Below are positions 1,930 to 54,453 of a stretch of 64,000 bases of DNA, one piece after another. Source of the stretch: an uncultured Candidatus Saccharibacteria bacterium (GTDB taxonomy: Bacteria > Patescibacteriota > Saccharimonadia > Saccharimonadales > CAIOMD01); assembly GCA_903859365.1 (NCBI GenBank), contig CAIOMD010000002.1, forward strand, positions 17,931-81,930. Reading direction: 5' to 3'. The translations under genes were made by a program, and so were the position numbers. Every line of letters starts with the position of its first letter. Within the stretch, counting starts at the first letter, position 1. The notes under the pieces were generated by a model. The model had not been told where the DNA came from. It made no database searches and worked only from the letters and a program-made list of their open reading frames with translations.

Positions 1930-2006
1930 TGGAGGGCCCAGTGGGACTTGAACCCACGACACCCTGCTTAAAAGGCAGGTGCTCTAACCGGCTGAGCTAT
2001 GGGCCC
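1930..2006 (-). tRNA. tRNA-Lys (anticodon TTT), copy 2
   Basis: Base-for-base identical to 282-358. Similarity ends at the tRNA borders. Confidence 0.9.
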
Positions 2007-3943: not shown

Positions 3944-4408
3944 TTAACTGTTATTCAATGTTGCGTCAACCAAAAAATTGTATTGCCGTAAAAATTTACT
4001 ACCAATAAGTAGAGGGTACATCATAGAACTTCTATCAGACAAAGATAGGGTAATGTCGTATTGTTGCTGCCCTATAACTATTTGTGTTGTTATAAGATAA
4101 CGCATTTCAACGTCACCGTTAGAGCTTTTTACTTGTTTTTTTGAAAATTGATCTGTCTCTATGACAACTTCAGGATGATCAAAAGGTGAAAAAACTACCG
4201 ATTTTTTACCGTCCTGATCACGCTCAAAAATTTTAGTACAGTGAAAAGCACCAGAATAGGCTCCAGTGTCTATCTTGGCAACAATATTATCTATCCCAAA
4301 AAACGGGAAAGATACACGTTCGTAATTACCTATTATTGTCTTTGCATTCATACGTATAACCCTTTTGGTTAGTTTGCATATTATAGCATAATTATTAATT
4401 TTTATCAA
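3944..4408 (-). CDS. retropepsin-like aspartic protease (RimB / 'ATP-dependent zinc protease' COG4067 family)
   Basis: 154 aa. VAKIDTGAYSGAFHC matches the AKxDTGA core of the RimK-associated protease family. Lies immediately upstream of rimK and overlaps the upstream gene by 4 nt. Confidence 0.75.
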   Translation of the reverse strand: MIKINNYAIICKLTKRVIRMNAKTIIGNYERVSFPFFGIDNIVAKIDTGAYSGAFHCTKIFERDQDGKKSVVFSPFDHPEVVIETDQFSKKQVKSSNGDVEMRYLITTQIVIGQQQYDITLSLSDRSSMMYPLLIGSKFLRQYNFLVDATLNNS

Positions 4409-47643: not shown

Positions 47644-47891
47644 ACAGGTCTGGGGAAAGGGTCAGGTTTTCGTCTGCTTGCTCCTTCAGGACGGGAGGGA
47701 CTGGGTTAGAACTAAATTACGGGGGTGAAAATGAAAGAACCGCCCTTTCGGACGGTTCCAACATTTGTAACTTACGTACAGTAAATTAGCATATTGTCTG
47801 ACCAAGGAGAGAAGTTAGGGACAGGTCTGGGAACCTGGTCTACCTATTTCTCTGCTGGGTCTGGCTCAGCATGTCGGTCTAGAACCGAGTC
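47644..47891 (-). repeat. conserved ~248-nt non-coding element, copy A (tRNA-3'-end-like head plus hairpins plus terminator-like hairpin); candidate structured RNA
   Basis: Aligns over its whole length with 50352-50598 (roughly three quarters identical by eye, not computed), with blocks such as CTGGGTTAGAACTA, GGTTCCAACATTTGTAACTTACG and TCTGACCAA.GAGAGAAGTTA. Starts 1 nt after the GNAT stop codon on the minus strand. Confidence 0.5.
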
Positions 47892-48440
47892 CTATCCTAG
47901 CGACAGCTCCAGCTTTATTGGTTGCCAGGTCAGCCCGTTCTCATCGGAGTAAGGCTCACCGTCCTCAACGAAACCAAGACCTTTGTTCATATTGCTCACG
48001 ATGGTATTACTTACCAGGTGTCGAGTGTAAATTGCCGGCGCATGAAGAACGTCCTTCACATAATCGACGGCTGATTGCATCACCGATGCGCCAATCCCTT
48101 TTCCCCGGTACTCAGGGTTACCAATCATAATGTGGATGCTCGGTGGCTTCACGCCGTGATTCTCAAATAGCTCAATCCATACCGCGCCGATAGTCTTACC
48201 GTCGACAACTATCATGCGTGTCATCTGCTTGTTATCTTTCTCGAGGTCCAAAAACTCACGGAGGGTTGCCTTCTCTCCCTCAAGTGTCGATGGCTCTATT
48301 TCGTCTTCGGCGTTTCCCATACTCAGTAGTGTGGCATGACCTTCTGGTCGCTCAAACCAGCTGAGTGCAAAAGATGCATCGCGCTCCGCGTCCGGTACTA
48401 AAAGCTGTATATCAGGTCGATTGGATTGCATGTTTTTCAT
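47892..48440 (-). CDS. GNAT family N-acetyltransferase (GC-rich, probably foreign)
   Basis: 182 aa. RGKGIGASVMQSAVDYV acetyl-CoA motif, NKGLGF. The DNA is clearly richer in G+C than its flanks. Confidence 0.85.
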   Translation of the reverse strand: MKNMQSNRPDIQLLVPDAERDASFALSWFERPEGHATLLSMGNAEDEIEPSTLEGEKATLREFLDLEKDNKQMTRMIVVDGKTIGAVWIELFENHGVKPPSIHIMIGNPEYRGKGIGASVMQSAVDYVKDVLHAPAIYTRHLVSNTIVSNMNKGLGFVEDGEPYSDENGLTWQPIKLELSLG

Positions 48441-48533
48441 TCCTCTTTCGTTAGTTCGTGAGCGTCGAGTGATTCAGCTACCTGTTCAAGTGAAGCCCTT
48501 CTCTGGGTTAGTGTCTAACACTAAAAGTACAAA

Positions 48534-48562
48534 TTGGCTCGGGCTAGAGTCGGATTTTCGAA
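48534..48562 (-). repeat. 29-nt repeat, copy 1 (tRNA 3'-end-like, minus strand TTCGAAAATCCGACTCTAGCCCGAGCCAA)
   Basis: Identical to 51903-51931. Lies 6 nt after the stop of the pilin-like gene. Confidence 0.7.
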
Positions 48563-48568
48563 GCCTGT

Positions 48569-49264
48569 TTAGTAATGCATTGACTCAAAGATGAGCTTAG
48601 CTTTACTAAAGTCAGGATTATTTTCCATAGATGAAACAGATTTATATACAGGCTGATTATTCGATGAATCTTTAGGTCCATTACTATAACTAAAATAATC
48701 ATCGGTCGGACATACTTGATTCACATTGCATACTTGTGTAATATTTTTTGCTGGTATAAAACCGCCTGAAACCGCAGCCCCGGTAGGCTGATCTGGAGTT
48801 CCGGTGACAAGTAATCCTTCGGATGAAGCCTGAATTTTTAGCTGGGTTGGTTTTCCTAAAAATGTGATGGGCACTGAAGCGTAGGTTTTCATAGGAGAAT
48901 CGCCTGCTATTATTCCGGTTCGTAAAGTTATGACATTTCCTGAAGGACTTGCCAATAATGTAGTATCAGCATTATCAACCTGGAGCGATGGAGGATAATC
49001 TGTTAAGGTCCAATCTGCTGGATACTTAAAGGTTATTTTTTCATATTTTAGTGTACCAGTTTTCCAACCAGCATATGGATAAACTGCAGTAGTTTTAGTG
49101 GTTGTTGCAGTCGTAGATGAACTACTGGTCTTAGACTTCTTGTTTACTTGTTTAAAGCCTAGGTAGCCTAGTCCTCCTACGAGAATGAGTACTACTATTA
49201 GTAATAGGACTTCAACGAGTGTGAAGCCTTTGTTCTTATTAGTGTTGTTAGATATCTTGCCCAT
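48569..49264 (-). CDS. type IV pilin-like protein (prepilin-type N-terminal cleavage/methylation domain)
   Basis: MGKISNNTNKNKG/FTLVEVLLLIVVLILVGG is a class III signal (Gly-1, Phe+1, Glu+5) with a hydrophobic helix. The start is set at the Met at 49264 rather than the track start 49345. Confidence 0.75.
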   Translation of the reverse strand: MGKISNNTNKNKGFTLVEVLLLIVVLILVGGLGYLGFKQVNKKSKTSSSSTTATTTKTTAVYPYAGWKTGTLKYEKITFKYPADWTLTDYPPSLQVDNADTTLLASPSGNVITLRTGIIAGDSPMKTYASVPITFLGKPTQLKIQASSEGLLVTGTPDQPTGAAVSGGFIPAKNITQVCNVNQVCPTDDYFSYSNGPKDSSNNQPVYKSVSSMENNPDFSKAKLIFESMHY

Positions 49265-49396
49265 TGTAGATATGTACTTTCTATTTATATTGTTAGTTAG
49301 TTCTAAGCATAAGTATATTAAAAAAAATTGAAAAGAAAAGACCATCTAATTTTAGGCTCACCTTATTTTAGGTTACATCTGTTAATTATTAAGTTT

Positions 49397-50281
49397 TTAG
49401 TCTTCTTTGAAGTCTGCGGCAATCATCCACTTATCGCGCATGCGAAATGCTGGTAAGGTGCCACGTACGGCTTTGTTTATAGCAGCATTTCCTGCTAGAC
49501 CATTTGCTTTTGCCCAGGCGGAAACAGTAATAATTCTTGGGGCCGACAGCAATGTAATTCGTTTATAAAGTGATTCAATTAGTAAGCCCGCAAGAAGTTC
49601 CGTGAATTCGTCGAATTTATTAGTAACTCTATAGGAGTCAAAGGCTGGGTAATAGCTTGTATGTTTGTTTTTGTTTTGAATAATCACAGGTGGAAGTCCC
49701 AACATCATCAGTTGCTGATTTATGAGCACTCGCCCTAATCGTCCGTTGCCGTCATTGAATGGATGGATAGTTTCAAATTCTGCATGAAACCACGCAATCT
49801 TGTTTAGAAAATAGCCATCGTCTGGTTTGTTATAGTTTGCTATAAGCTCTTTGATTAATTGTTCAACAAAGTCTGGGTTAGCACCAATGTGTGCACCTAC
49901 GCGTACCCACTCTTTGCCGCTGCGAAACCTACCAGCCCATTCATCTTTGATGCCCGTAAGAAGCAACTTGTGAAGCTCCAAAATAGAAGTATCATTGATC
50001 ACTTTATATTGATTATCAAGCAAAGTTTGAGTAATTTTTGCTAGATTTTTAGCTTCGTATATCTCACGAATATCATGGTCATTTTTTATTGAATCCCTGA
50101 GTAGAATATCTTCGGTATCCTTTAGGGTTAGAGTAGAGTTTTCTATGGCATTGCTGTTATAGACCATCTCTGGTATTTCTGCGATAGCGATTTCACGAAC
50201 AGCCTCAGGTTTAATTCTCACAAGCATTTGATATTGTTCAGTTAACGTTGCTATTCGGTCTTTTGTGACTTTATTAATCAT
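49397..50281 (-). CDS. Fic family protein (AMPylase-type) with N-terminal inhibitory motif
   Basis: Fic motif HPFNDGNGRLGR. SNAIEN fits the (S/T)xxxE(G/N) alpha-inh motif. 294 aa. Confidence 0.9.
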   Translation of the reverse strand: MINKVTKDRIATLTEQYQMLVRIKPEAVREIAIAEIPEMVYNSNAIENSTLTLKDTEDILLRDSIKNDHDIREIYEAKNLAKITQTLLDNQYKVINDTSILELHKLLLTGIKDEWAGRFRSGKEWVRVGAHIGANPDFVEQLIKELIANYNKPDDGYFLNKIAWFHAEFETIHPFNDGNGRLGRVLINQQLMMLGLPPVIIQNKNKHTSYYPAFDSYRVTNKFDEFTELLAGLLIESLYKRITLLSAPRIITVSAWAKANGLAGNAAINKAVRGTLPAFRMRDKWMIAADFKED

Positions 50282-50287
50282 AAGTAC

Positions 50288-50343
50288 ATTGTATCATACT
50301 TTACGTGAAAATTGGTAGATATGTGCATAATTTCACGTAAAGT
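50288..50343 (-). promoter_or_regulatory. leaderless-type promoter of the 294-aa Fic gene with 13-bp inverted repeat
   Basis: Minus strand TGATACAAT (extended -10, complement of 50288-50296), then 6 nt to the ATG at 50281. Perfect inverted repeat ACTTTACGTGAAA (50298-50310) / TTTCACGTAAAGT (50331-50343), 20-nt spacer. Confidence 0.5.
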
Positions 50344-50351
50344 TGTAAAAG

Positions 50352-50598
50352 AAAGGTCCCGGGGAACGGGTCAACGTTTTGGGTGCTTGCTTGCTCGGGA
50401 CGAGAGAGGCTGGGTTAGAACTAATCTACAGGGGTGAAATGAAAAAACCACCATTTCTGGTGGTTCCAACATTTGTAACTTACGAACTGTAAATTAGTAT
50501 TTCTCTGACCAAAGAGAGAAGTTACTGTAGGTCTAGGAACTAGGTCTACGTTTTTCTCTGCTTGGTCTGGCTCTGCGAACCGGATTTGAACCAAAGTC
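50352..50598 (-). repeat. conserved ~248-nt non-coding element, copy B
   Basis: Homologous to 47644-47891. Minus-strand head TTTGGTTCAAATCCGGTTCGCAGAGCCA matches the tRNA-Asn 3' end at 21 of 28 positions. Hairpin AACCACCA-GAAA-TGGTGGTT followed by TTTTTTC (50446-50465). Confidence 0.5.
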
Positions 50599-50608
50599 AT
50601 AAAAGAAT

Positions 50609-50674
50609 ACAAGGACATTTACAAGGACATTTACAAGGACATTTTTGTCGAGTAGTGTGGTATAATTAGAGTAT
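50609..50674 (+). promoter_or_regulatory. three perfect tandem 12-bp repeats plus extended -10 promoter of the 333-aa Fic gene
   Basis: ACAAGGACATTT x3 (50609-50644). TGGTATAAT with TATAAT at 50661-50666, 8 nt before the ATG at 50675. Confidence 0.5.
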
Positions 50675-51676
50675 ATGAAAGACTATTCACCAGTTTATAA
50701 GATAACACCAAAAATTACCAATCTTGTGTATCAAATTGCGCAAGATTTGGAACGAATTAACATTATCCGTGAACAAGTCCTTACGCCTCATCTACGTCGT
50801 GAAAACCGTATTAAGACTATCCGATCGTCGCTTTATATAGAAGCAAACACCCTAAGCCTAGAACAGGTTGCAGATGTAATAGACGGCAAAACTGTTATCG
50901 GTCCAGAAAGTGAGATTCTGGAAGTAAAAAACGCTATCAAAGCTTATGACAAACTACTTGGATGCGATCCTTACGATGTCAAAGATTTACTAGCCGAACA
51001 CGAGCTGATGACCAAAGATACAGTAAAAGAACACGGTCGGTTTCCTAATAGTGGGGTTGGTGTATATGCCGGCAATGTACCCATTCATGTTGCCCCACCA
51101 GCAGAACAAGTGCCAATACTGATTGAACAATTACTGAAATGGGTAAAAGATGCTGAGTTACCTCAAGTTATTAAATCCTGCATTTTCCATTATGAATTTG
51201 AGTTTATTCATCCATTTGCAGATGGTAACGGTCGGATGGGGAGAATGTGGCAAACTCTTCTTCTCTATCAGGAAAATCCAGTATTTGGGTGGTTACCCGT
51301 TGAGACAGTTATCGCAAAACGACAAGAGAAATACTACTCAGCAATCCAACAATCAACCAAAGAAAGTGACAGTGCAATATTCGCCGAGTTCATGTTAACG
51401 GCTCTTGCTGAAGCGGTGGCAGAGTTCAAGAATAATCAGGGTGTAATCGGAAAGTCTCTTGAAGCACCTTTAAGTAGCACCGAGCAAATTGTATTAAAAG
51501 CTATCGTGAGTAATCCATATACTACCTACCAAGAAATTGCCGAAAAAATTGGCAAAACACCAAAAACCGTTCAACGTACACTTGCCAGTTTAAAAGATCG
51601 TGGGCTTGTATCCCGAGTAGGTTCAGACAAGACTGGACATTGGGTAAGTTATGGGAAATTAAATAAGAATATATAA
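50675..51676 (+). CDS. Fic family protein with C-terminal winged-helix DNA-binding domain
   Basis: Fic motif HPFADGNGRMGR. N-terminal SLYIEA (alpha-inh-like, Gly/Asn replaced by Ala). C-terminal wHTH YQEIAEKIGKTPKTVQRTLASLKDRGLV. Confidence 0.9.
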   Translation: MKDYSPVYKITPKITNLVYQIAQDLERINIIREQVLTPHLRRENRIKTIRSSLYIEANTLSLEQVADVIDGKTVIGPESEILEVKNAIKAYDKLLGCDPYDVKDLLAEHELMTKDTVKEHGRFPNSGVGVYAGNVPIHVAPPAEQVPILIEQLLKWVKDAELPQVIKSCIFHYEFEFIHPFADGNGRMGRMWQTLLLYQENPVFGWLPVETVIAKRQEKYYSAIQQSTKESDSAIFAEFMLTALAEAVAEFKNNQGVIGKSLEAPLSSTEQIVLKAIVSNPYTTYQEIAEKIGKTPKTVQRTLASLKDRGLVSRVGSDKTGHWVSYGKLNKNI

Positions 51677-51828
51677 GTATATAAATTCATGAAATTAAGA
51701 TTAGCCATAACCAAACTTTTCCAAAAACTAACCTACACTGGTGATGTTGTATCTGTTAACTATACGAATTTTAGTCGAGCTATTGCTCAGAATGTGTTAA
51801 AAACTAATAATTTGCTAGGAGGCAAAAT

Positions 51829-51948
51829 ATGAGTAACCAAACTATTAAAAAAGACCCCGATAACAGGGGTCGTAATGAGCTCAATGAGCGCTTGCGTTCT
51901 ATTTGGCTCGGGCTAGAGTCGGATTTTCGAACTATGGTAGTTGTGTGA
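51829..51948 (+). CDS. possible 39-aa ORF overlapping the 29-nt repeat
   Basis: Own translation MSNQTIKKDPDNRGRNELNERLRSIWLGLESDFRTMVVV. AGGAGG lies 7 nt upstream. It overlaps an antisense terminator and the repeat, so it may be fortuitous. Confidence 0.25.
   Translation: MSNQTIKKDPDNRGRNELNERLRSIWLGLESDFRTMVVV
51847..51871 (-). terminator. intrinsic terminator downstream of the Nudix module
   Basis: Minus strand GACCCC-TGTTATC-GGGGTC followed by TTTTTT. Confidence 0.55.
51903..51931 (-). repeat. 29-nt repeat, copy 2
   Basis: Identical to 48534-48562. Directly abuts the TAG (51932-51934) that ends the out-of-frame Nudix continuation. Confidence 0.7.
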
Positions 51949-52114
51949 TTATAGCGAGTGCGGCTTCTAAAAACACCAAATCCCTTGCCTTCACTAATTT
52001 ACCATCAAGATTTTCAGGGTTAGCCCTGGCTACTAATTTTGCTGCATCATGGATGTTATTCGCCCATATAACGTTGTGGCCTTCTTCGGATTCAAAACTA
52101 GTTAAGTTTTGTCG
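51932..52114 (-). pseudogene. out-of-frame 3' continuation of the Nudix gene (60 codons, no start codon)
   Basis: Own translation RQNLTSFESEEGHNVIWANNIHDAAKLVARANPENLDGKLVKARDLVFLEAALAIITQLP. Reads like the usual C-terminal part of Nudix hydrolases. Overlaps the end of the 118-aa ORF in another frame. Confidence 0.45.
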
Positions 52115-52458
52115 TTATCACTTCCAATAACACGAGCCGTGTAGCAGTAATCTACTTGTTTTTTAGACCACCTGTCGAAATATACTTCAGCTCTACCAAT
52201 CTCGCTTATTATCTCAATTTTACAACCCAGCTCTTCAATTATTTCACGATTTAACCCATTTCTAACATCTTCCACATTTTCAATACCACCTCCAGGCAAC
52301 ATATAATAATCGTGTTTGCTTACATGGATAAGTGCAACCCTACCGTCCTCGTCAAATACAATTGCGCGCGCTGCGTTGCGTGGCTTGAATGAATCGTAAT
52401 CAAAATCAGGTGCATTTGAATCAACATCCTTAGCCTTGAGTGATGCCAGTAATTTCAT
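52102..52458 (-). CDS. Nudix hydrolase (apparently truncated by frameshift)
   Basis: Nudix box GGGIENVEDVRNGLNREIIEELG (Gx5Ex7REx2EExG). Only 118 aa. Confidence 0.8.
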   Translation of the reverse strand: MKLLASLKAKDVDSNAPDFDYDSFKPRNAARAIVFDEDGRVALIHVSKHDYYMLPGGGIENVEDVRNGLNREIIEELGCKIEIISEIGRAEVYFDRWSKKQVDYCYTARVIGSDNDKT

Positions 52459-52472
52459 AGAGACATTATATC

Positions 52473-52676
52473 CTATCGCATCATTGAAACAGCGTGGTCA
52501 ACAACTTGTGCTGAACCAAATCTACCCAAAGGATAGCGATCTGCTAAGAACTCTTTTGTAATCAGGGCACCAACTAAATTGGCAATGGCTTCTTCTTTTA
52601 GGCTCGCCTTTTGTTTATTAGCAGGTGCTAGAAAGTATTCTGACAGTTGTTTTCTTACACTACTCGGACTCAACAT
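52473..52676 (-). CDS. hypothetical protein (67 aa)
   Basis: ORF 14 nt upstream of the Nudix gene. No recognisable motif. Confidence 0.45.
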   Translation of the reverse strand: MLSPSSVRKQLSEYFLAPANKQKASLKEEAIANLVGALITKEFLADRYPLGRFGSAQVVDHAVSMMR

Positions 52677-52863
52677 TATTTAATCCTTTAGATAAGAATA
52701 CACCTATAAATCTGTTATGGGTCCGTTCGATAATCATTTGATCCTCGTTCTATAGCTTTTCTAATTCTTCAATAACTTACGGTATTTGACTCGACACTAG
52801 TTATGCGGAACATATTGCTAAGATTTTGGTATTAAAATAGTATACTCAGCTTAAGGAGGTGTG

Positions 52864-53811
52864 ATGTCGAAATTTATTGATTATTATAAAATTCTGGACG
52901 TTGAAACGAATGCTACCCAAGATGAAATCAAAACGAGCTATCGGCATCTAGCAATAAAGTATCATCCTGACAGGGGAGGCGATACTAAAAAAATGTCTCA
53001 AATTAATGAAGCGTATTCTATATTGTCCAATGACAATCTTCGATTTAATTATGATGAAATTCATGACAGATTTTATAATACCTCGTCCCATCACACCGAA
53101 GATTACATAGATAAAACAAATGAATTAATTGCACTCCTCATAATAGCCAAAAAAGCAGCTCGGCAAGCTGCATTAAAAGGATTAGTATATCTAGTCATTG
53201 GCACAGCAATTACTGTTGGAGGGTACCTCGCTTCGTCCAATGGCGGGCATTATTTAATAGCATGGGGAGCAATTTTATTCGGTGGATATAGTTTCATCCG
53301 TGGTCTGCATTATTATTTCAACCCGAACCTTCTATTAAAAAAGTCGATGGGTCCTGAAAAATACAATAATTATTTCGGCTCTGAAAACCTAAGAACCTCC
53401 TACTGGGGAATTGTCATTTCTGTAGTTATTGTCTTAGTTTTATTAGGTATCATTGGTTCCGTTACTGGAGCTAGCGGATCTTCAACTAATGGCAGCTCTA
53501 CATCGGCGTCAAGCGGGGGTTCTCGATCTTTAACGAGTGACCAACAATCACTAAGTGATGAGGCAAACCGTCTTAAATCCGAATATGATACATGCACTAC
53601 CGATTTATCAAATCTGAAGAGTAAAGTCGATGAGTTAAATAGTCAGCTTAATGCTTATGATGCCGCTGGGAATACTTATGGATACAATAGTGTAATTCCA
53701 GAACAGAACTCAGCAGTAAATACGTTCAATCAGAAAAGGGAACAATGTTTATCAGCTCAATCAGCAGCAAATGACGCTGTAGATGCTTATAACAAATCAA
53801 TAAGCCCATAA
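52864..53811 (+). CDS. J-domain protein with two TM helices and Ser-rich/coiled-coil C-terminal region
   Basis: DYYKILDVETNATQDEIKTSYRHLAIKYHPDRGGD (HPD). AGGAGG lies 4 nt upstream of the ATG at 52864 (the track starts at GTG 52861). Confidence 0.8.
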   Translation: MSKFIDYYKILDVETNATQDEIKTSYRHLAIKYHPDRGGDTKKMSQINEAYSILSNDNLRFNYDEIHDRFYNTSSHHTEDYIDKTNELIALLIIAKKAARQAALKGLVYLVIGTAITVGGYLASSNGGHYLIAWGAILFGGYSFIRGLHYYFNPNLLLKKSMGPEKYNNYFGSENLRTSYWGIVISVVIVLVLLGIIGSVTGASGSSTNGSSTSASSGGSRSLTSDQQSLSDEANRLKSEYDTCTTDLSNLKSKVDELNSQLNAYDAAGNTYGYNSVIPEQNSAVNTFNQKREQCLSAQSAANDAVDAYNKSISP

Positions 53812-53825
53812 AGTGGCAACAAAAT

Positions 53826-54137
53826 CTATTTGGGGGATTTCGTTTCTGCAGTTAATGAAACTAGGAAGAATAAACCTAACCCAACGTCAAGGGTATGCCA
53901 AAGTTGCTTATCAAGGTATATCGGGAATATAGGATTGAATATTATGGCGGGGATAAGAAATGCGTAACTCAACATTTCTAAGTGGTTCTCTTTAAAGTAC
54001 CAGAAGGAATAGAGAGAAGCACCACATACCACTATTCGAAGAATCTGGTAATAAGAATACGGCCAGCTTCCAAGAGCTAGTAACAGCATTATTCCTGTCG
54101 TCAATCTTACTGCTATAGATAGTTTTTTATTCTCCAT
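53826..54137 (-). CDS. small polytopic membrane protein
   Basis: Hydrophobic ORF. I prefer the ATG at 54137 (MENKKLSIAV...) because the track's TTG start (54203) lies inside the terminator hairpin of tRNA-Asn. Confidence 0.5.
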   Translation of the reverse strand: MENKKLSIAVRLTTGIMLLLALGSWPYSYYQILRIVVCGASLYSFWYFKENHLEMLSYAFLIPAIIFNPIFPIYLDKQLWHTLDVGLGLFFLVSLTAETKSPK

Positions 54138-54184
54138 GAAGAGGTACTTAATCAATCTGGTACTTTCGAACTTGAAATTAGATG

Positions 54185-54217
54185 GAAAAAGGCTCGTTTT
54201 CAATCTGAACGAGCCTT
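54185..54217 (-). terminator. intrinsic terminator downstream of tRNA-Asn
   Basis: Minus strand AAGGCTCGTT-CAGATTGAA-AACGAGCCTT (10-bp stem) followed by TTTTCC. Confidence 0.55.
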
Positions 54218-54252: not shown

Positions 54253-54327
54253 TGGCTCCGGGGACTGGATTCGAACCAGCGACCTAGTGGTTAACAGCCA
54301 CCCGCTCTACCGCTGAGCTACCCCGGA
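54253..54327 (-). tRNA. tRNA-Asn (anticodon GTT)
   Basis: Reverse complement TCCGGGGTAGCTCAGCGGTAGAGCGGGTGGCTGTTAACCACTAGGTCGCTGGTTCGAATCCAGTCCCCGGAGCCA. Cloverleaf with anticodon loop CTGTTAA, G73 discriminator, encoded CCA. Confidence 0.9.
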
Positions 54328-54453
54328 ATAAAGTTGGAAGGTACGTCAGTTTTTCACCGAATTACGAAAGCTGATTATAGAGATAAAACTCCTTGACGTC
54401 AATAAATCGCCACAAAAAGCAGACGAATTTGATGAAAATGCATATTTATTTAA

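Follow-up and report, generated by a model that had tools for sequence, protein, structure and literature searches.

The locus and its repeated element

The stretch of DNA analysed here (the window) comprises 64,000 nt of contig CAIOMD010000002.1 from an uncultured Candidatus Saccharibacteria bacterium, and window coordinates count within it. On the minus strand, an intact tRNA-Asn(GTT) gene lies upstream of two diverged copies, A (47644-47891) and B (50352-50598), of a non-coding sequence that begins with a degenerate tRNA-Asn-like copy ending in GAGCCA (termed psi) and continues for ~215 nt after the CCA (termed E). Comparison with related loci, which were taken from genome, metagenome or viral contigs and are labelled L with a number, indicates that E is probably the conserved tRNA-proximal (attL-side) end module, terminator included, of integrative elements that insert after the GAGCCA of tRNA-Asn in Saccharibacteria. 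The features of the locus, in the order in which the minus strand is read, are as follows.

54374-54402, minus strand: tRNA-Asn promoter-like site, TTGACG-17-TATAAT, 11/12 matches
54253-54327, minus strand: intact tRNA-Asn(GTT), proposed integration target, 3' end ...GGAGCCA
50675-54203: cargo between tRNA-Asn and E_B (DUF6804, DnaJ-domain protein, NUDIX, Fic-HTH)
51903-51931, minus strand: psi3, tRNA-like 3' end TTCGAAAATCCGACTCTAGCCCGAGCCAA, junction of the first and second islets, with a terminator (51871-51853) after it
50568-50598, minus strand: psi_B, tRNA-Asn 3'-end mimic, GAGCCA at 50573-50568
50352-50567, minus strand: E_B, subtype II, with stem ii, hairpin iii, terminator hairpin and conserved 3' region
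47892-50281, minus strand: cargo between the E copies (Fic 49397-50281, pilin-like 48569-49345, GNAT acetyltransferase 47892-48440)
48534-48562, minus strand: psi3', 29 nt identical to psi3 in direct orientation, junction where the E_B/Fic/pilin-like islet meets the GNAT islet
47862-47891, minus strand: psi_A, tRNA-Asn 3'-end mimic, GAGCCA at 47867-47862, right end of the preceding GNAT islet and junction
47644-47861, minus strand: E_A, subtype I, with stem ii, hairpin iii, terminator hairpin and 3' region

Copies A and B are direct repeats 2.5 kb apart that align from end to end, as had been judged by eye in an earlier sequence-only reading of the window; BLASTN returned 81.3% identity over 219 nt (E value 1e-53). 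Their flanks are unrelated to each other, and a BLASTN/repeat search of the whole window found no third copy. Each copy starts, on the minus strand, with a T-arm/acceptor-like head, and a 25-nt tRNA 3'-end pattern gives eight matches in the window (six real tRNAs, psi_A and psi_B) against 0.04 expected, in agreement with the tRNA-Asn 3'-end-like head of that reading. Stem ii, an imperfect 14-bp stem, follows (47861-47800 in A, 50567-50507 in B), and AGACC occurs five times in A and three times in B, on one strand only, against ~0.28 expected. Three AGACC repeats had been described as enclosed by this stem: the stem and the spacings of 21 and 13 nt stand, whereas the first AGACC overlaps the stem and is not enclosed by it. 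Next comes hairpin iii, located in both copies as predicted (47788-47768 in A, 50496-50476 in B), and then hairpin iv, of terminator type with a T-run (47759-47736 in A, with the T-run to about 47727, and 50467-50444 in B), in which the alignment contains the double changes from G:C to A:T that had been pointed out. Part v, the last, consists of ~85-90 further conserved nt 3' of the terminator, reaching to about 47639 in A; the alignment gives it ~85 nt, much as first described. Fold z-scores against shuffles are -3.2 and -4.7 for the minus strand and -1.2 and -2.8 for the plus strand.

No conserved reading frame runs through E, given 1-nt indels in the alignment and longest stop-free stretches that among the copies fall to 36 aa, and the sequence-only reading was thus correct that no frame is shared. 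Two frames were considered as coding and rejected: a sense frame of 25 aa is broken by indels, and an antisense mini-open reading frame (mini-ORF), MKEPPFLTVPTFV..., is conserved only where the terminator is. The antisense mini-ORF lies on the plus strand (47733-47783 and 50441-50491), carries a Shine-Dalgarno-like GGGGTG, overlaps the terminator hairpin and would encode MKEPPFRTVPTFVTYVQ in copy A and MKKPPFLVVPTFVTYEL in copy B. Most of 65 copies keep its first 13 codons, but the tail differs between copies, for lengths of 2-55 aa, and L079 and L113 have lost the ATG; it is probably a by-product of terminator conservation. The Rfam comparison proposed in the sequence-only reading found only tRNAs in the window, with no overlap with E at the gathering threshold or even at an E value <= 10, and no family overlapped E in L015, L027, L138 or L158. 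No promoter was found inside E, BLASTN of phage GenBank records gave no match to E, two E DNA patterns had zero or chance matches only among viral contigs, and no description of this element was found in the literature searched.

Distribution and subtypes of E

An 18-mer from E occurs in 29 genome contigs, ~21 of which are Saccharibacteria metagenome-assembled genomes (MAGs) with the full-length element, and a 19-mer occurs in more than 120 metagenome contigs; in total nhmmer identified ~130 copies, all full-length ones in Saccharibacteria-type contigs. The further homologues on which the sequence-only reading had made its proposal depend therefore exist, and their positions are those that it had suggested checking: about 100 loci have E adjoining tRNA-Asn or an islet border, and every copy starts at the 3' end of tRNA-Asn or at a mimic of it. 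In most loci the match starts within the intact tRNA-Asn and takes in the last 25 nt of that gene as its own first 25 nt. Many contigs hold two to five copies, 0.7-11 kb apart, and every extra copy follows a psi that still ends in the invariant GAGCCA. Copies A and B fall into different subtypes, I and II respectively. Both are more similar to copies in other organisms (92% identity) than to one another (81.5%), which indicates separate arrivals and not local duplication.

Two variants were seen among these loci. In L015 (3290-3554, minus strand) and L027 (2608-2835, minus strand), which include a Ca. Saccharimonas aalborgensis MAG, a group I intron (RF00028, 84 and 100 bits) splits the anticodon loop of tRNA-Asn, and because of this interruption ARAGORN misses both genes. 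The fragments that start at the anticodon loop in these loci were considered as classical attR fragments, but each belongs to an intact tRNA that a group I intron interrupts. A short form of E, which retains model positions ~8-52 and ~180-244 only and from which both hairpins and the terminator are deleted, is present in three contigs, L083 (about 1507-1619), L043 (2-104) and L071 (about 3988-4095).

The unit of insertion

Pairs of closely related loci define what is inserted. L084 and L098 share a block of 99.6% identity that runs from E across 5.3 kb of cargo up to the psi ending in GAGCCA, and they diverge right after the final A, beyond which L098 has a second E with CsoR-CopA and L084 has a simple terminator and no E. 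Similarly, the stretch that runs from E across three genes to the GAGCCA of psi is 99% identical in L149 and L122, which differ beyond it, and L017 (tRNA-E-CsoR-CopA) is 99.3% identical to L098 from E onward and 72% identical upstream of the tRNA. The unit is therefore composed of E, cargo and psi, in that order, and is inserted exactly after the CCA of the tRNA. All junctions have GAGCCA, and no other sequence, in common. These three pairs of related loci, though not the window's own islets, show presence/absence polymorphism whose boundaries fall at the repeat; an intact tRNA at one end with a displaced tRNA 3' copy at the other is found in the window (tRNA-Asn and four mimics), in L084, L098, L122 and L149 and in others.

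Across 26 distinct tRNA-E loci, mean pairwise identity is 80% for E, 78% for the tRNA and about 18% for the flanks, and the identity of E correlates with that of the downstream 200 nt (r 0.43) and not with that of the tRNA (r -0.01). Given that the identity of E tracks the cargo and not the tRNA, E is counted as part of the mobile unit. The sequence-only reading had offered an att arm as an alternative to a structured RNA, and an att arm or island border fits the tRNA-Asn-type starts, the border positions and the block-wise presence and absence.

The copper-resistance cargo that lies just after E in L017, L010, L012, L015 and L006 comprises the palindrome GTACCCCCTAGGGGTAT, a CsoR-family repressor and a P-type ATPase, and this module is 99% identical across different genomic backgrounds. 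Other array cargo (L096 10344-11375, minus strand; L082 4416-5327, plus strand) comprises an RVT_1 reverse transcriptase, an aminoglycoside-phosphotransferase-family kinase and a mercuric-reductase-like oxidoreductase. A trio of genes of 243, 453 and 488 aa was considered as a recombinase trio and encodes instead a histidine phosphatase, an MFS transporter and a molybdopterin oxidoreductase; likewise, the ~347-aa ORFs between the E copies of L029 and L027 are Fic-HTH proteins and not integrases.

The array in the window

The minus strand of the window has five GAGCCA junctions, at the tRNA (54253), psi3 (51904), psi_B (50568, then E_B), psi3' (48535) and psi_A (47862, then E_A), and the locus is therefore a tandem array of at least four islets. 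These islets measure 0.7-2.4 kb and hold, respectively, DUF6804/DnaJ/NUDIX genes, Fic-HTH, E_B with Fic and a pilin-like gene, and GNAT; E_A comes after the GNAT islet and has its own downstream genes. Directly after tRNA-Asn, junction 54252 is an E-less islet end with its own terminator. Beyond the E-less junctions 54252 and 48534, the sequence has homologues at the left ends of serine-recombinase elements in L149 and L144, that beyond psi3' having its homologue in L144, and no recombinase gene follows either junction in the window. Since E_A directly adjoins the GNAT stop codon it would serve as the 3' untranslated region and terminator of that gene and, with E_B lacking a same-strand gene directly upstream, co-transcription of either copy with the tRNA is unlikely in the window. 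Upstream of tRNA-Asn lie genes for DUF5684, a LexA-like protein, GtrA and Wzy, and the flanking genes of the window have 65-72% nucleotide similarity to Saccharibacteria MAG loci, which together with the E copies is the basis in this analysis for placing the window in that group.

Several smaller repeats accompany the array. The 29-nt direct repeat TTCGAAAATCCGACTCTAGCCCGAGCCAA (48534-48562 and 51903-51931) brackets 3.4 kb that contain Fic-HTH, psi_B, E_B, Fic and the pilin-like gene, a segment that looks like a recent composite insertion into a pseudo-tRNA site bounded by attL and attR; no copy of this repeat was found in the other loci. Just upstream of psi_B there are three tandem copies of AAATGTCCTTGT (50609-50644, minus strand), with which the short repeats GTCTCATTT that precede psi twice over in L006, L023 and L158 can be compared, and such repeats are possible binding sites in the right arm of the islets. 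Between E_B and the Fic gene (50299-50342) there is a 12-bp inverted repeat, CTTTACGTGAAA...TTTCACGTAAAG, with the same flank in L023; it is likely to be an operator or promoter of the Fic gene. Elsewhere in the window, two tRNA-Lys(TTT) genes (282-358 and 1930-2006, minus strand) with identical 3' ends and equal Rfam scores enclose a 207-aa ORF (1142-1765) and may represent another duplication or insertion at a tRNA gene.

Recombinases linked to the site

Recombinases were sought in the window by Pfam scans of ORFs from ~35.7-63.4 kb and by XerD and serine-recombinase probes in six frames over its whole length, and none was found. The XerD probe was a single sequence run in phmmer with all filters off; over the window and ~0.9 Mb of loci it gave no match with an E value below 0.8, though as a single probe it could be escaped by very divergent integrases. 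No tyrosine recombinase was seen among about 150 Pfam-scanned ORFs; for a batch of 74 proteins the Pfam scan covered the best 25 of 112 families.

Large serine recombinases, by comparison, recur in the related loci: 12 such genes were identified, all downstream of tRNA-Asn and convergent with it, none upstream. Eleven of these lie in the 367 kb downstream of E, whereas the 262 kb not downstream of E contain only that of L076, between the tRNA and E. Two families are represented. The 428-aa family, of which L068 4715-6001 is an example, has Resolvase, Recombinase and Zn-ribbon domains and lies 0.3 kb from E in L138, 2.6 kb from E in L158, an IMG/VR viral contig with ABC-transporter cargo, and 4.2 kb from E in L068, L038, L055 and L098, where the cargo is CsoR-CopA. 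The gene is followed by those for a terminase, a ParB-methylase and other phage-family proteins, and relatives with 45-50% identity in viral contigs adjoin the 3' ends of tRNA-Gln and tRNA-Ser. In the ~510-aa family, exemplified by L151 1229-2794, the 3' end of the gene abuts the GAGCCA junction. A ~385-aa protein with a weak match to Phage_CRI (rolling-circle Rep) comes after the ~510-aa recombinase in L119 (5253-7971), L076 (5522-8231), L149 (5164-7878) and L144, and such pairs at the GAGCCA of tRNA-Asn are possibly inovirus-like or rolling-circle integrative elements of Saccharibacteria.

E as the probable end module of integrative elements

Position, boundaries, block-wise presence and absence, array structure, linkage to serine recombinases and the anatomy of the terminator were all observed directly, and the simplest reading of these sequences would make E the att-proximal end of a temperate-phage lineage that uses the 428-aa recombinase. 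A complete element would consist of tRNA-Asn, E, variable cargo, a convergent large serine recombinase gene and phage genes, with the cargo ("moron") slot between E and the integrase gene. Recombinase-less derivatives or satellites would carry E, 1-10 cargo genes and, at the right end, the degenerate tRNA-Asn copy ending in GAGCCA, and would move with a recombinase supplied in trans. Each arrival would integrate at the tRNA and push older units downstream, giving a tandem array with GAGCCA junctions in which E_B and E_A would be the left ends of two units of different subtypes. The islets of the window are probably relics of serine-recombinase prophages.

Functions can be proposed for the parts of E. 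The invariant first ~25 nt after GAGCCA would be a half-site of the recombinase, and the next ~115 nt, on the tRNA-sense strand, would form two hairpins and the intrinsic terminator, giving the tRNA a defined 3' trailer. The terminator would also keep transcription that starts at the strong tRNA promoter out of the element, in which such transcription would be antisense to the recombinase gene. The last ~90 nt, with further GACC repeats, would bind an accessory or directionality factor.

Several points weigh against this assignment. The mobility of the window's own islets is unproven, and they are possibly fixed relics, given that there is no recombinase in the window; neither a circular form nor an empty site was seen for the same strain; and the right end of the prophage with the 428-aa recombinase was reached in no contig. 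E is not required for insertion, because other islets use the same GAGCCA site without it. For large serine recombinases ~50 bp of att DNA normally suffice, which leaves 215 nt that are conserved like a tRNA unexplained. Finally, pairing persists through sequence change in hairpin iii and in the inner helix of stem ii, a property that a DNA-binding arm does not need.

Structure of E and alternative explanations

The pairing of E was analysed in 65 non-redundant copies. Among the cells of the proposed helices 97.8% form pairs, a share that drops to 31-54% once the partners are slid. Compensatory pairs are present in the terminator (151/156: AU 44, CG 15; 148/159: GC 56, AU 5) and in the inner helix of stem ii (56/77: CG 28, UG 20, UA 14); the outer stem never varies and thus offers no covariation evidence. 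Cells changed on both sides number 40, against 9.6 in shuffles (0/500), whereas pairs changed on both sides number 5, against 3.1 in shuffles, a value reached by 59/500, and the covariation term of RNAalifold is only -1.32 kcal/mol. Hairpin iii is not alignable across subtypes: unrelated sequences at the same position still fold, in 43 distinct versions with a mean z of -1.6. Frequent G.U pairs restrict the fold to the tRNA-sense strand. The 90 nt 3' of the terminator are conserved in sequence with almost no structural signal. Hairpin iv is a GC-rich stem-loop with a U-tract on the minus strand of both copies, and a consensus scan calls both as terminators. Terminator-like hairpins also come after the E-less junctions 54252 and 51903, so that a terminator just behind the tRNA looks recurrent at these element ends. 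For the structured RNA proposed in the sequence-only reading, the retention of hairpins with compensatory changes on the tRNA-sense strand therefore holds; however, the hairpin with the best support is an intrinsic terminator of the ordinary kind, the 14-bp outer stem is invariant, the 3' 90 nt are conserved in sequence and not in structure, and neither copy in the window is behind a tRNA promoter. Nothing shows a free-standing RNA gene.

In a bolder reading E, beyond an att arm with a terminator, could be a portable RNA/DNA device of tRNA-Asn-targeting phages and integrase-less satellite islets that hijacks the tRNA transcription unit, either as a processed 3'-trailer RNA controlling the convergent recombinase gene or lysogeny, or as a landing pad. 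In the latter version a regenerated, preferred attB could give rise to integron-like cassette arrays in Saccharibacteria by way of serine recombinases acting in trans. Such a device is a tentative and rather unlikely reading.

A functional small RNA, namely a ~115-140-nt 3' trailer of tRNA-Asn (of the 3'-external-transcribed-spacer type) that comprises stem ii, hairpin iii and the terminator, is released by tRNA processing and acts in trans for the element or the host, would make the association with islet borders secondary. This, the foremost of the alternatives, is unlikely. The one-strand fold with its many G.U pairs, its z-scores, the compensatory changes in the inner helix and terminator and the refolding of hairpin iii from unrelated sequences all speak for such an RNA, as does the location of most copies directly behind a tRNA gene, which in the window has a strong promoter-like site. 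On the other hand, the covariation term is small, the double-changed pairs are matched by shuffles as given above and the outer stem does not vary. The equally conserved 90 nt past the terminator would fall outside the RNA, and distal array copies are intact though they lie behind terminators or, as with E_B, have no upstream same-strand gene. Furthermore, there is no Rfam match, and E travels with the cargo and not with the tRNA.

Given that up to five copies of E are interspersed with cassettes of 1-3 genes in the arrays of L082, L071 and the window, E might be a cassette recombination site, integron-like or of the Xer/dif-module type, at which a host recombinase recognises a folded strand or a palindromic core (hairpin iii) and small gene cassettes are captured singly. 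The cargo (GNAT, Fic, APH, NUDIX and metal-resistance genes) is of the kind expected in cassette arrays, most cassettes have no recombinase and the hairpins are strand-specific. This scenario is nevertheless improbable: neither the XerD probe nor the Pfam-scanned ORFs yielded a tyrosine recombinase within the scope given above, the junction common to all units is the tRNA-like GAGCCA end and not E, with several cassettes lacking E altogether, and E is far longer and more conserved in sequence than attC or dif.

The Rep (Phage_CRI) genes beside the 510-aa recombinases of L119 and L076 suggest a further role for E, as a single-strand replication origin or packaging signal for integrase-less islets that, in the manner of phagemids, use the rolling-circle elements at the same tRNA-Asn. 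Both full-length elements of this kind (L076 and L149) end against an E, and E has several one-strand hairpins and invariant unpaired blocks. It is very improbable, however, that E has this role, as the Phage_CRI matches in Pfam are weak (E value 2e-5), no E-like sequence lies inside the Rep-bearing elements, E is linked instead to the other recombinase family with its tailed-phage genes, and there is no nick-site evidence. Lastly, a recent local segmental duplication decaying neutrally, which two direct repeats 2.5 kb apart with 81% identity might suggest and which the sequence-only reading had itself named as fatal to its proposal, can scarcely be entertained, as it is contradicted by the closer identity of both copies, of different subtypes, to those of other organisms, by ~130 homologues under evident constraint and by the unrelated flanks of A and B.

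Implications for Saccharibacteria

The genomes of Saccharibacteria and other bacteria of the candidate phyla radiation (CPR) are tiny and their routes of gene gain are poorly understood. With E read as the end module of integrative elements, the locus is a defined hotspot at the CCA end of tRNA-Asn, where islets with toxin (Fic), acetyltransferase, metal-resistance, redox and defence-type genes accumulate in tandem, and where islets 99% identical to one another occur in genomes whose flanks are only about 70% alike. The psi|E junction and the 3' end of tRNA-Asn are a candidate attP and attB, respectively, for two large serine recombinase families, and candidate att sites are the sort of part needed for genetic tools in the hard-to-manipulate Saccharibacteria. 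In annotation, E can be relied on to mark islet borders, and unless it is recognised as such it would be mistaken for a novel RNA gene.

Comparison with known systems

In integron attC arrays and chromosomal cassette arrays, short cassettes are separated by a repeated hairpin-forming element. The arrays described here likewise have a hairpin-forming repeat between short cassettes with similar types of cargo; they differ in having no integron integrase, in a junction that mimics a tRNA end and in a repeat that is optional, longer and conserved in sequence. Intrinsic (Rho-independent) terminators and the insulators of prophage ends, among them the Tn916 terminator (PMC11658703), have a GC-rich hairpin and U-tract that, at an element end, guard against read-through from outside. 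E has the same hairpin and U-tract, together with ~190 nt of further conserved sequence that a terminator does not need.

Classical tRNA-gene islands, as outlined for Islander/TIGER (PMC4383910), are flanked by an intact tRNA on one side and a displaced 3' fragment on the other, and the tRNA gene is restored by the island. The present units share the intact tRNA and the displaced 3' copy, whereas their crossover is at the extreme 3' end (GAGCCA), so that the tRNA is not split, the recombinases found with them are of the serine and not the tyrosine type and most units have no integrase. Tycheposons of Prochlorococcus, in the account available from the preprint, are cargo elements at tRNA genes that remodel genomic islands (Hackl et al., bioRxiv 10.1101/2020.12.28.424599). 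Carriage of cargo at tRNA genes is thus a shared feature, and a counterpart of E is not described in that account. Tycheposons reportedly also have partial tRNA copies at their junctions and some units without an integrase, with hallmark genes that are mainly tyrosine recombinases and replication modules.

The closest described system, with Tycheposons as the second analogue, is that of the ssrA islands of Dehalococcoides, which are arranged in tandem downstream of one small-RNA gene and bounded by the 3' end of that gene or by a repeat of it in direct orientation, with a ~540-aa serine recombinase on the reverse strand beside attL; about half of these islands have no integration module and have been read as cis-mobilizable elements built by accretion (McMurdie et al. 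2011, PMC3146451). The two systems are alike in their tandem islands, 3'-end repeats, reverse-strand serine recombinase near attL, seen here in related loci and not in the window, and many integrase-less units. They differ in target (tRNA-Asn here, tmRNA there), in the repeat, which is 20 bp in Dehalococcoides and here a degenerate copy of up to the full-length tRNA, and in size, the elements here being much smaller (0.7-5 kb). What is new here is the CPR host, the CCA end of tRNA-Asn as target, a pseudo-tRNA of up to full length at the right end and a conserved, structured module of 215 nt between the crossover point and the cargo or integrase.

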